The notes beneath the pieces were generated by a model, which worked only from the letters and a program-made list of their open reading frames with translations, ran no database searches and had not been told where the DNA came from. This document shows positions 7,207 through 35,606 of a stretch of 64,000 bases of DNA, one piece after another; the first letter of the stretch is position 1, and each line of letters begins with the position of its first letter. This stretch comes from Escherichia phage Mt1B1_P17, in the sequence record NC_052662.1; one strand, written 5' to 3'. The position numbers and the translations under genes are program-made.

Positions 7207-7225
7207 AGGGCGCTTGGTGCGCCCT
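7207..7225 (-). terminator. terminator hairpin copy 3 (AGGGCGCTTGGTGCGCCCT)
   Basis: Identical to 1776..1794; T-tract on minus strand. Confidence 0.45.
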
Positions 7226-7233
7226 TGTTATGT

Positions 7234-17156: not shown

Positions 17157-17512
17157 TAGAACGTTTCTCCTTTTAAAATAATTACTGTAAACTTTGCAGT
17201 TTTTTCACTCTTAATATTCTTGACTAATAAGTATTCTCCTCCAGGGGCATCTTTATATTGTTTAATAGCTACTATTTCATTTTTGCAAGTGGCTATAATC
17301 GAATAAAAAGGACGTTCCGTGTTATCTTCTTTTCCTGTATATGCCTCAACATCTTTACACTCTTCTAGAACACCATTTCCAGGTGTATAGTAAAACTTGT
17401 TGCCTGTGATCACAACATCTTTACCAATATCTGTTTTAACTGCTACAAATTTTTGAGCGTAAGTGGTGAAGCTTACGGTAGCCAGCAATGTGGCTAAGAT
17501 TAATTTTTTCAT
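17156..17512 (-). CDS. secreted protein with signal peptide (MKKLILATLLATVSFTTYAQ)
   Basis: Start set at internal Met with RBS AGGAGGG. Confidence 0.5.
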   Translation of the reverse strand: MKKLILATLLATVSFTTYAQKFVAVKTDIGKDVVITGNKFYYTPGNGVLEECKDVEAYTGKEDNTERPFYSIIATCKNEIVAIKQYKDAPGGEYLLVKNIKSEKTAKFTVIILKGETF

Positions 17513-23919: not shown

Positions 23920-24093
23920 ATGGGAGATAAACAAAGTAACATCCGTTACGCGCTTTATGGAAGAATGGGTGCAGATTGTGAATGGATGCTTCTGTCGCAA
24001 CGTATACCCTCTTACAAAGAGGCTCTTGAAAAAAGAGACTATTATAAACAAACATGGCGTTTTGTCATTTGTAAACACTATTTGGAGGCGTGA
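23920..24093 (+). CDS. small protein, 57 aa (below track cut-off)
   Basis: ATG with RBS AAGGAGG; stop overlaps next start. Confidence 0.3.
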   Translation: MGDKQSNIRYALYGRMGADCEWMLLSQRIPSYKEALEKRDYYKQTWRFVICKHYLEA

Positions 24094-24401
24094 TGAGTAC
24101 ATTATCATTAGCAGTTACGGTGCACCAGTATTACGAAGAAGCTGTAAAAGATTCAGAAAACCCATCTACATTGGTGTTTGAAGATCGGACTGGTCTTAAA
24201 TGGGTAGAATCTGGGGATGAACTCTACTTTTGGTATCCACAAGGTTGCACAAGTAATTCTAATTTGTATAGTTATGAACTGGAGTATCGTGCGCCTGTAG
24301 ACGAAGATGACAATTACATCATGTATTATGTTAATAATGGTTGCGGTGAAACGTTTAATGTAGTATTCTCTAAAGCCTTGAAGTCCGACGAGGAGATGTA
24401 A
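24093..24401 (+). CDS. hypothetical protein, tandem paralogue A
   Basis: Shares TLSLAV...Y...VKD...EDD.FIM..VN.G.GE...VVF with CDS 24401..24706. Confidence 0.45.
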   Translation: MSTLSLAVTVHQYYEEAVKDSENPSTLVFEDRTGLKWVESGDELYFWYPQGCTSNSNLYSYELEYRAPVDEDDNYIMYYVNNGCGETFNVVFSKALKSDEEM

Positions 24402-24706
24402 TGCGGCACAATACGACTTTAAGTTTGGCAGTTGCAGCCCACATGCTGTACAATGATTCTGTGAAGGATGAGTTGTCGCCTGTGAGTTTAGCTTTCTATC
24501 TGATAGACAGGGATTGGATGTTCTCTGGTGAGGATGAAATCTACTACGTAAATTCACGCGGTTTTATTGAAAGTTTTGAACTTGAACATCACGCACCAAC
24601 AGCAGAAGATGATCGTTTTATTATGTTCTGTGTAAATGATGGTTACGGAGAGGTGTATGACGTAGTATTCTTCAAAAACCGACAGAAGACTGAAGAGGAA
24701 TTCTAA
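24401..24706 (+). CDS. hypothetical protein, tandem paralogue B
   Basis: Paralogue of 24093..24401; overlapping start/stop. Confidence 0.45.
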   Translation: MRHNTTLSLAVAAHMLYNDSVKDELSPVSLAFYLIDRDWMFSGEDEIYYVNSRGFIESFELEHHAPTAEDDRFIMFCVNDGYGEVYDVVFFKNRQKTEEEF

Positions 24707-25070
24707 ATGAAAAGGCTACTTTGTATCCTGATGTTGATGATTGCCACCAATGCTACAGCCGCCCGTGATGGTTTCAAGATTGGGGGTGGAAGGTAGCCAA
24801 TTCTTCACTTGGTATGGTGGTGAAGCTGTCTACCAGGTGGATGATAAAAAGTATAACTGCAAGTTTGATCGTATAGATCGTGGAGTGGATAATTGGGGTG
24901 ACGCTTACAAAGCCACAGGTTTCTATTGCACAAAAGATTTATATATTACAGTCAAAGAACCACAAGACAATAGAAAGGTGTTGTTCATTGTGGTAAACCC
25001 TGCTAAATTTGAAGAACGTAAAGCTTACTATGCAGATATGTTCATTGAATACAAAAAGGAGGAAAAATGA
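24707..25070 (+). pseudogene. secreted protein gene split by a frameshift at a G5 run (24782..24786)
   Basis: Signal-peptide ORF 24707..24796 (MKRLLCILMLMIATNATA..., RBS GAAGAGGA) is joined to ORF 24741..25070 by removing one G of GGGGG. Confidence 0.4.
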
Positions 25071-25429
25071 GAGAAACAATCGTAGATGTTGTTATTAATG
25101 GTCAACGTTATGTGCCTGTTGTAGAGAAAGCTGAACCAGATGCTTTAGATGTTGTTTTTGAAGACGATGATCTTGGCACTGTTACTGTGCGTGAATATTT
25201 CAGACGACTGCTCTCTACACTTTGGGAAGAAGAAGATAGTTTCAGTGGAAAACGCCCTTTCGGTAACTCTTGCTGGCAGTTCGATTTGATTATTGGTTTG
25301 ATCGATGCTGGGTACCTGGAAGGTAAAGTTTATCGTGACGAAGATGGTGGTATAGAAGATACCGACTATGATCGGGAAGAAGCAGATAAACTCATCCAGG
25401 GTCTGATCGCACGTATGTGTTTAGGTTAA
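25067..25429 (+). CDS. hypothetical acidic protein (120 aa)
   Basis: ORF; RBS AAGGAGGAAAA. Confidence 0.5.
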   Translation: MRETIVDVVINGQRYVPVVEKAEPDALDVVFEDDDLGTVTVREYFRRLLSTLWEEEDSFSGKRPFGNSCWQFDLIIGLIDAGYLEGKVYRDEDGGIEDTDYDREEADKLIQGLIARMCLG

Positions 25430-25430
25430 T

Positions 25431-25799
25431 ATGAAGGTATTAAACTTTTACCATTTAGGCAAAACAATCCCAGAAGGTGCTGTTTATATTGGTAGAGCAA
25501 TGCCACACATGGAATTAAAAGCCTCTAAGTTTGCAAACCCTTTTAAGTTAAAAGATGATGAACCACGAGGATCAACTATACAAAGGTATAAAGAGTGGTT
25601 GTGGGAGCAAATTCGTTGTGGTAAGATCACTCTTGAAGATTTATTAGAGTTAGAAGGGAAAGATTTAGTTTGCTTCTGCTCCCCTCAACCTTGTCATGGA
25701 GATGTATTGGTAGCAGCCGTGACTTGGGCTAGAAAAGAGTGGGACAAAAGGCATCCTACTTATGTAGACAATTATTGGATTTGGGAGGAGAATTTTTGA
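25431..25799 (+). CDS. conserved-looking hypothetical protein (122 aa; YIGR...NPF...CFCSPQPCHGDVL motif)
   Basis: Motif pattern typical of a widespread phage protein family of unknown function; from memory only. Confidence 0.45.
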   Translation: MKVLNFYHLGKTIPEGAVYIGRAMPHMELKASKFANPFKLKDDEPRGSTIQRYKEWLWEQIRCGKITLEDLLELEGKDLVCFCSPQPCHGDVLVAAVTWARKEWDKRHPTYVDNYWIWEENF

Positions 25800-34298: not shown

Positions 34299-35118
34299 TC
34301 AAACTCAAATTTTTGCAAATAAATTTGATGACCTGGAAACTGCTACTTTTGATATCCAAGATTATTCAAAATTAAAATTTGGTAGTAACCAAGCTGCGCG
34401 TCGTATGGGTAAAGAATTAGCACTTCAGTTTTTTGCTCAAGTGGCAATGAAACATATTGGGGAACAATTTGTTATCATTCCTTCTCCTTATAACCATGTG
34501 CATAATGCTGCAACAATGATGACAGATCATTTTATTAATTATTTTAATATGTTGCAATCACAATATGATCAAGGTCGTTCAGCAGAACTGGACATTATTC
34601 ATCGTAAAGTTAGCTATATCAACGATTATGGTTTCTTGGATAAAGCTAGTCGTAAGAAACTTATTGATGGGGATACATTCTACTGCAACAAAGAATTCTG
34701 GGGTGATAAGAAGCTTGTATTCATTGATGATGTAAATATCACTGGAACGCATGAAGACAAACTGATTGAGATCCTTGATGAAAATCAAGTTAAAAATGAT
34801 GTTTACTTCTTGTATTTTGCAAAATACGAAGGTAATCAAGCAGATACCGAAGCTAAACTGAATTTTAACTACATTAATACACCAGAAGCGTTTGTTAAAA
34901 TGATTAATGAAGAACGTGATGCACAGTGTCTTGTTCGTCCTATTAAGTATCTTATGGGCCAAAATCATGAAGACTTCAAAATCATTCTTAGCCAATTGCC
35001 ACATTACTATGTAGAGCAACTTTTCTTTGGATGTTTGGGAGAAGGTTACAACCGAATTTCAAAGTATGCTGAAAACTTTGAATTCTTGGATCGTTACACA
35101 AAACAACACATTCTGTAA
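34291..35118 (+). CDS. phosphoribosyltransferase (type I PRTase) domain protein
   Basis: PRPP-binding motif KLVFIDDVNITGTHED. Confidence 0.5.
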   Translation: MRNQTQIFANKFDDLETATFDIQDYSKLKFGSNQAARRMGKELALQFFAQVAMKHIGEQFVIIPSPYNHVHNAATMMTDHFINYFNMLQSQYDQGRSAELDIIHRKVSYINDYGFLDKASRKKLIDGDTFYCNKEFWGDKKLVFIDDVNITGTHEDKLIEILDENQVKNDVYFLYFAKYEGNQADTEAKLNFNYINTPEAFVKMINEERDAQCLVRPIKYLMGQNHEDFKIILSQLPHYYVEQLFFGCLGEGYNRISKYAENFEFLDRYTKQHIL

Positions 35119-35132
35119 TAAGGAGCTAAAAA

Positions 35133-35606
35133 ATGCTTAAAATGAAAAGAGGTAATCTTATTGATGCCGCTAAAGCAGGTGAAGTAACTGTTATTGCTCA
35201 TTGTTGCAACTGTATGTGTAATATGGGGGCAGGTATTGCCCCACAAATCAAACAAGCATTTCCTTACGCATATGCAGCAGACTTAGACACAATGGCTGGT
35301 GATCAAAGTAAACTAGGTTGTTTTAGTTTAGGGGTGCCAGACGAACAATCAGACCCTTTGGTATATAATCTATACGGGCAATACCGTTACGGATACAATG
35401 CTAAAGGTCGTCAGTTGGACTATGATGCACTTTACGATGCACTAATAGCTATGGCTAACGATTTGCTTCTCCGTGACCAAAAATGTAAGATCGGCTTACC
35501 TATGATTGGCGCTGGATATGCTGGAGGTAATTGGGCTATCATCCAAGTGATGATTGAAGAAACTTTAGTAAAAACAGGTCACGATGTGACTATTTATAAA
35601 CTTTAA
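35133..35606 (+). CDS. macro domain (ADP-ribose-binding/hydrolase-like) protein
   Basis: N-terminal VIAHCCN...GAGIA and C-terminal GLPMIGAGYAGG resemble macro-domain glycine-rich motifs. Confidence 0.55.
   Translation: MLKMKRGNLIDAAKAGEVTVIAHCCNCMCNMGAGIAPQIKQAFPYAYAADLDTMAGDQSKLGCFSLGVPDEQSDPLVYNLYGQYRYGYNAKGRQLDYDALYDALIAMANDLLLRDQKCKIGLPMIGAGYAGGNWAIIQVMIEETLVKTGHDVTIYKL

Follow-up and report, generated by a model that had tools for sequence, protein, structure and literature searches.

The genome of Escherichia phage Mt1B1_P17 presents a puzzle at positions 24707-25070 of the stretch of DNA that we analysed (64,000 nt of record NC_052662.1, hereafter the window). An open reading frame that begins in the manner of a secreted protein stops after 29 codons, and what could be the remainder of the same protein follows in the +1 frame. 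Is this one gene or two, and if it is one, is it broken in the phage, broken only in the deposited sequence, or expressed by ribosomal recoding? Mt1B1_P17 is a phAPEC8-like myovirus of the genus Phapecoctavirus (Stephanstirmvirinae), with a genome of 151,202 bp.

Organization of the locus

All the elements of the locus lie on the + strand. The TAA codon of the upstream gene (24704-24706) directly abuts an ATG at 24707, and a Shine-Dalgarno (SD)-like sequence AAGAGGA is located at 24693-24699, i.e. 7 nt 5′ of the ATG and within the end of the upstream gene. It is present in all the aligned relatives. As written, the reading frame that opens at this ATG comprises 29 codons and a TAG (24707-24796). 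The product MKRLLCILMLMIATNATAARDGFKIGGGR (29 aa) consists of a signal peptide and 11 further residues, ARDGFKIGGGR. The signal peptide (M1-A18, MKRLLCILMLMIATNATA) is encoded by 24707-24760, with a signal peptidase I site predicted after A-T-A and before A19. A run of five G nucleotides (24782-24786) is the site of a one-base insertion, as there are four in every relative, and the premature TAG that results from the frameshift is read in the sequence at 24794-24796. The rest of the gene (24783-25070) is in the +1 frame, running from G26 to K120 and the TGA at 25068-25070, and contains the whole of a predicted β-barrel domain. The open reading frame on this side extends from 24741 to 25070, giving 109 aa from a TTG start or 106 aa from the first ATG at 24750. 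Direct reading of the sequence 5′ of the 24741 and 24750 starts revealed no AGGAGG-like sequence.

Deletion of one G from the run of five creates a single open reading frame of 363 nt, encoding 120 aa. The junction peptide of the full-length protein is IGVEGSQFFTWYGGEAVYQVDDK, and its counterpart in the truncated product is DGFKIGGGR. The preliminary description of this locus, with a ribosome binding site and ATG at 24707 opening a signal peptide, a remainder in the +1 frame lacking a ribosome binding site of its own, and a junction at GGGGG where removal of one G restores some 120 aa, is thus an accurate one.

The next gene (25056-25429, including its SD sequence AAGGAGG at 25056-25062) is intact and also encodes 120 aa. 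It starts at an ATG (25067) that shares bases with the TGA of the broken gene (ATGA, 25067-25070), and its exact product was found on 324 contigs.

The two reading frames belong to a single gene

In a profile search, residues 1-120 of the repaired protein matched positions 1-121 of the 121 positions of phrog_5474 with E = 7.7e-33, and homologues of 119-123 aa align with it from end to end. Along its full length the repaired protein has 97% identity with the cluster representative (P0001), and likewise with the 120-aa coding sequences annotated in relatives. A single coding sequence of 363 nt, in the same place and with the same neighbours, is annotated in the phages ETEC-TG, ASO2A, anhysbys, ECO340P1 and tuntematon. 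When the 120-aa proteins of the relatives were used as queries in tblastn, residues 1-26 aligned in one frame (88-100% identity) and residues 24-120 in the next. Because the full-length match to phrog_5474 and the 97% identity with P0001 and with the coding sequences of the relatives embrace both parts, the alignments show that the two-ORF layout is a split gene, and not a chance juxtaposition. The suggestion that the second frame carries the rest of a plausible mature protein of the same gene is well founded.

The encoded protein

The N-terminus has the layout MKR / LLCILMLMIA / TNATA followed by A19, as read from the sequence. These would be the n, h and c regions of a Sec signal peptide, the first of them positively charged and the second hydrophobic, and the small residues at -3 and -1 would place the cleavage site. 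The layout is conserved in kind in all of the full-length homologues. AlphaFold2 modelling of the repaired protein gave a mean pLDDT of 80 (84-95 for most of the mature domain) and a pTM of 0.70. The model has eight β-strands and one short helix, preceded by the signal peptide, which is disordered and is the only segment of low pLDDT, N-terminal to the well-folded domain. C51, C74 and the motif D-x-WGDAY are invariant across the homologues.

The family is a small one. Sixteen representatives were found at E ≤ 0.001 among 1.8 billion, confined to these phages and their relatives. The REC/phAPEC8-type phages carry an allele of 119 aa that is 57% identical, and because of this the gene can be regarded as genus-wide. 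An earlier reading, obtained at 60% coverage, that about half of the genus is without the gene was wrong; the REC/phAPEC8-type phages retain the 57%-identical allele, and what they lack is one of two paralogous genes that lie upstream.

The best annotated viral neighbour is a protein of Serratia phage Moabite that its depositors named 'putative lysozyme inhibitor', with E of about 1e-5 and 20% identity. The repaired protein has the predicted periplasmic location and eight-stranded β-barrel fold of the MliC/PliC proteins, but no Pfam family, MliC included, was matched at E up to 1, so that membership of that family is not indicated by sequence. There was also no match in NCBIfam, and a search against the sequences of the PDB returned nothing but a chance match to an antibody (E = 1.1). 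The PliC/MliC lysozyme inhibitors, the type VI immunity protein BtaiB and DUF4251 have sequence identities of ≤10% with the P17 protein, and unrelated barrels, avidins among them, score just as highly against it, so that it is only a fold class that is shared with these proteins. The modelling thus supports a predicted Sec-exported, periplasmic eight-stranded β-barrel with one likely disulfide bond, in the fold class of periplasmic inhibitor and immunity proteins.

The window contains another intact gene for a signal-peptide protein of 118 aa with two cysteines (17159-17512, - strand), and the tuntematon copy of this shares the label VOG7198 with the frameshifted gene. It was considered as a paralogue on account of the shared pVOG label, and rejected at an hhalign probability of 1.8%.

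Neighbouring genes and other features of the window

The two genes just upstream of the split gene (24090-24401 and 24401-24706) are tandem paralogues (E = 2e-22), their products being 44% identical across 103 residues, and in REC/phAPEC8-type relatives just one of them is present. The 101-aa upstream protein is JR327_gp064, with a P17-specific sequence. On the other side, at 25431-25799, there is a protein of 122 aa that is called 'ribonucleotide reductase NrdA-like' in several records. The name looks like a carry-over of annotation, because the only match on record for this protein is to Pfam DUF4326.

We note two repeated sequences elsewhere in the window. The motif TTGTGAGCGG occurs in 7 copies at ≤1 mismatch, against 2.4 expected by chance, between 5043 and 12241. 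All are on the + strand, within a block of small genes encoded on the minus strand, and they frequently lie at intergenic positions that vary by indels. The 17-mer GCTTGGTGCGCCCTTGT is present in two exact copies, at 1781-1797 and 7212-7228. Both are probably repeated regulatory or terminator elements. No tRNA genes were found in the indel-rich region 1-22000.

The fifth G is private to the Mt1B1_P17 record

The window proteins gp060, gp064, gp065 and the DUF4326 protein match those of Mt1B1_P17 exactly, and the deposited record carries G5. All 34 GenBank phages that have this allele carry G4 and one intact open reading frame of 120 aa. With a query of 91 bases centred on the run, each of the 34 phage records aligned over 90 bases and none at 100% identity. 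G4 was also read directly in ETEC-TG, BI-EHEC, ASO2A, anhysbys and tuntematon, in one IMG/VR contig and in one Logan contig. Scans for the exact G5 junction returned no match in IMG/VR, in a metagenome collection or in the GTDB genome collection. The G4 sequence, used as a control in the same exact-match scans, was found on 1 contig (IMG/VR), 2 contigs (metagenome) and 1 contig (GTDB genome/MAG). The comparison of homopolymer length among related phages that had been proposed for this locus therefore gives G4 throughout and G5 in the P17 record only. A set of relatives with the same two separate reading frames, which would have spoken against a broken gene, was looked for as well; the relatives carry the single one.

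Logan contig SRR34436951_129803, the nearest relative that we found, differs from the window by 21 substitutions over 6 kb (99.63% identity) and also encodes the P17-specific gp064 protein; its run is G4 and its 120-aa gene is unbroken. Either the two lineages parted very recently and the extra G came after that, or the base is present only in the consensus. This contig was considered as an independent assembly of P17 and rejected, the 21 substitutions in 6 kb marking it as a distinct close relative. A search of the contig index with the 106-aa reading frame gave no match, and no separate assembly of P17 came to light, this contig being the nearest. BI-EHEC (OL505078), with a match 1201 bases long, was considered as possibly sharing the extra base; this was also rejected, as it has G4 here and its extra base lies elsewhere.

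Mutation in the phage or error in the consensus

The preliminary description offered a sequencing error and a recent inactivating mutation as explanations, and a G5 that is private among relatives with G4 fits both. Indels were polarised by comparison of the window with six relatives. BI-EHEC was not used for counting because it is noisy, with many private insertions of 1-2 bases, and four annotated relatives were used instead. At least two other relatives cover 57,584 positions of the window, and among these positions there are just two private indels of non-triplet length, namely the G5 at 24782 and A6 in place of A5 at 35128. Homopolymers of at least four bases number about 1,100 in the window, and a comparison at the protein level found no other gene in the window that is split relative to all the relatives. 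This is not the pattern of an assembly prone to homopolymer errors.

The second indel is non-coding. Its position is in the stretch that separates AAGGAG from the ATG of a gene for a phosphatase-like protein of 157 aa, at 35118-35136, in the sequence AAGGAGCT(A)nATG, where the distance from ribosome binding site to start is one base longer than in all five relatives.

In BI-EHEC the private insertions of 1-2 bases occur at or next to GTAC (giving GATAC or GTATAC), together with several homopolymer differences. In window coordinates the positions concerned are 2406, 7690, 8939, 10530, 16726, 25312 and 41253, and the stretch is unannotated in OL505078. These insertions look like systematic base-calling error, perhaps at a modified motif, and are not a feature of the window.

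Consensus errors in runs of five bases are uncommon with Illumina MiSeq, for which the rate of homopolymer indel error is low at 5-6 bases. The clean assembly tilts the balance towards a real mutation when it is taken together with the reported sequencing of the Mt1B1 phages on Illumina MiSeq Nano (PMC10470868). We consider it probable that a single G has been added in the DNA of the phage, and that the split gene is an ordinary, private null allele. We infer that the extra G is carried by the phage itself and not by the consensus alone, that it originated by slippage in replication, that the intact protein is exported to the periplasm and that its function has been lost.

The other explanation of substance is that the phage truly has G4 and an intact 120-aa gene, with the extra G present only in the deposited consensus. 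This is possible, although we think it the less probable account. A homopolymer difference of +1 that is unique to one record is a classic signature of error as well as of mutation. G5 occurs in one record only, with none of the 34 GenBank relatives and no exact match in the three collections sharing it, and even the relative at 99.63% has G4. The one further private indel within the 57.6 kb likewise extends a homopolymer by one base (A6 compared with A5 at 35128). Moreover the genus as a whole retains the gene, as at least two alleles with 57% identity; from this retention purifying selection can be argued, and a null allele is then somewhat unexpected. Against an error, nothing systematic is apparent: of some 1,100 runs that are at least four bases long only two are affected, and this gene is the only one that is split. 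BI-EHEC illustrates how a noisy assembly looks, and the reported use of MiSeq (PMC10470868) also counts against it. In addition, natural knock-outs of the same gene exist in other phages.

Loss of the gene in other phages

A second broken copy is present in a Logan contig of 83.5 kb, SRR9943761_594 (P0004; L011 3001-3321), which has G4 at the site of the window's insertion. Its frame is broken near L011 3076, where GGT-GGTGAA has become GGTGGGGGAGG, a G5 lying 35 nt downstream of the window's site. Assembly noise was considered as the cause of this frameshift and rejected, as there is no other non-triplet coding gap in comparison with ECO340P1. In a further variant (P0007, 75 aa) the first 29 residues of the gene run on in frame into the C-terminal end of the DUF4326 protein encoded two genes downstream. 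Most of the gene has been deleted, along with the following 120-aa gene and the N-terminal part of DUF4326, and a single fusion stands in place of three genes. At least three samples have this variant, with the fusion located at L012 2501-2728, L013 938-1165 and L014 153-380.

On the strength of these sequences the gene is dispensable in nature, other phages having lost it independently by frameshift and by deletion. Truncated members are visible in the clusters of the neighbouring genes too, and we therefore claim no special enrichment of loss here. It might be argued, from two independent G4-to-G5 insertions at different runs in two phages and a deletion variant in several samples, that phAPEC8-like phages repeatedly lose this gene or switch it, either because loss is selected on some hosts or because its short G runs act as a crude reversible switch with leaky +1 slippage. 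We consider this very improbable. The second G4-to-G5 event, in SRR9943761_594, is in a different run and is suggestive only as far as phase variation is concerned.

Recoding and contingency at the G run

The third option in the preliminary description was a slippage-prone site. This could be a functional +1 ribosomal frameshift, setting a ratio of full-length protein, or a contingency tract switching the gene on and off. G runs are classic targets of the glycine-tRNA frameshift suppressors, and in a +1 model tRNA-Gly would re-pair from GGG to GGG on G-GGG-G. A +1 slip on AUU-GGG-G would recreate the wild-type sequence ...KIGVEGSQ exactly, and the site is surrounded by a G-rich, SD-like stretch, GGGGGUGGAAGG. 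However, +1 sites of the prfB type require a hungry codon or a stop at the point of slippage. Here the 0-frame codon in the A site after GGG is the common GGU, and the TAG comes three codons later, so that neither a slow codon nor a stop occupies the A site. Folding of the 101 nt that follow is no better than that of shuffled sequences (z = -0.75), which gives no sign of a stimulatory element. Nor is the frameshift conserved in orthologues, the gene being in frame with G4 in the 34 GenBank phages, in IMG/VR, in the metagenome and MAG contigs and in the nearest relative. Programmed recoding is therefore unsupported, on account of the want of a conserved frameshift, a slow codon or a stimulatory RNA structure, and only +1 leakiness at background level would be expected at G5.

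A switch might draw on the independent change from G4 to G5 in the same gene of a second phage. Yet runs of 4-5 bases are far below the length of known contingency tracts, and no polymorphism of length at this site was seen among more than 38 sequences; the run is of four bases in every other sequence and five here, and is not a long polymorphic tract. A functional role of either kind is thus very unlikely, and this part of the preliminary description is not sustained.

Annotation of the locus

In RefSeq the locus is represented only by the 106-aa downstream reading frame (24750-25070), as JR327_gp065 (YP_009986990.1), which is identical to the reading frame in the window. This product begins with 11 residues, MLQPPVMVSRL, that come from reading the signal peptide region out of frame, and the annotation is a truncated and mis-started reading of the frameshifted gene. 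The truncated entry is already in UniProt and BFVD, as A0A7G8L1E0. The RefSeq annotation apart, it is extremely unlikely that there are two genuine genes here, for a secreted peptide of 29 aa and an independent cytoplasmic protein of 106/109 aa, given that the second would begin with out-of-frame signal peptide and has no ribosome binding site, that the layout occurs in no relative, and that the family profile spans both parts as one protein. The main value of the analysis is a practical one; gp065 should be flagged as a pseudogene, or corrected after a check of the reads.

Consequences of the additional nucleotide

Where the locus is intact, the product would be a precursor of 120 aa, comprising a Sec signal peptide and an eight-stranded β-barrel containing a disulfide, that is exported to the periplasm of the host. 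Taking the fifth G to be real, as we favour, one G would have been added to the run of four in P17, most likely by slippage in replication, to give the G5 at 24782-24786. Ribosomes initiating at the ATG at 24707 would then read the signal peptide and 11 further residues, and stop at the TAG at 24794. The barrel part would be left in the +1 frame, with at most a trace of full-length protein arising by spontaneous +1 slippage on GGG-G. Since the barrel part has neither ribosome binding site nor signal peptide, P17 should lack the protein, or make no more than a trace of it. Little polarity would be expected because the downstream gene is intact and has a strong ribosome binding site of its own. 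As written, the gene would be a null allele of a dispensable accessory gene.

P17 has been used in work with gnotobiotic mice, and as sequenced it would be without an exported β-barrel protein that is found genus-wide. It could serve as a natural knock-out, for comparison with a repaired phage or with a G4 relative in order to learn the role of the protein.

Comparison with known systems

The locus resembles prfB (RF2) in requiring a +1 shift, in having a G-rich, SD-like sequence nearby and in having an in-frame stop soon after. In prfB, however, it is the stop codon that occupies the A site at the point of slippage, an arrangement conserved among bacteria, whereas in P17 the stop follows three codons beyond the run, the A site holds GGU and the frameshift is found in no relative. 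The poly-G contingency loci of Neisseria, Haemophilus and Campylobacter are similar in that the length of a G tract sets the frame of a gene for an exported protein. Their tracts are usually of at least 7 bases and are polymorphic within populations, while here there are 4 or 5 bases, with 4 elsewhere. The closest likeness is to the frameshift pseudogenes, common among accessory genes of phages and bacteria, that arise when replication slippage in a short homopolymer leaves a single-base indel. In common with these, the P17 gene has a mononucleotide run that is longer by one, a premature stop a few codons on, an intact remainder and intact orthologues. Nothing material distinguishes it from them, save the question of whether the base is in the DNA or in the consensus. 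The split in P17 is an already known, ordinary kind of frameshift.
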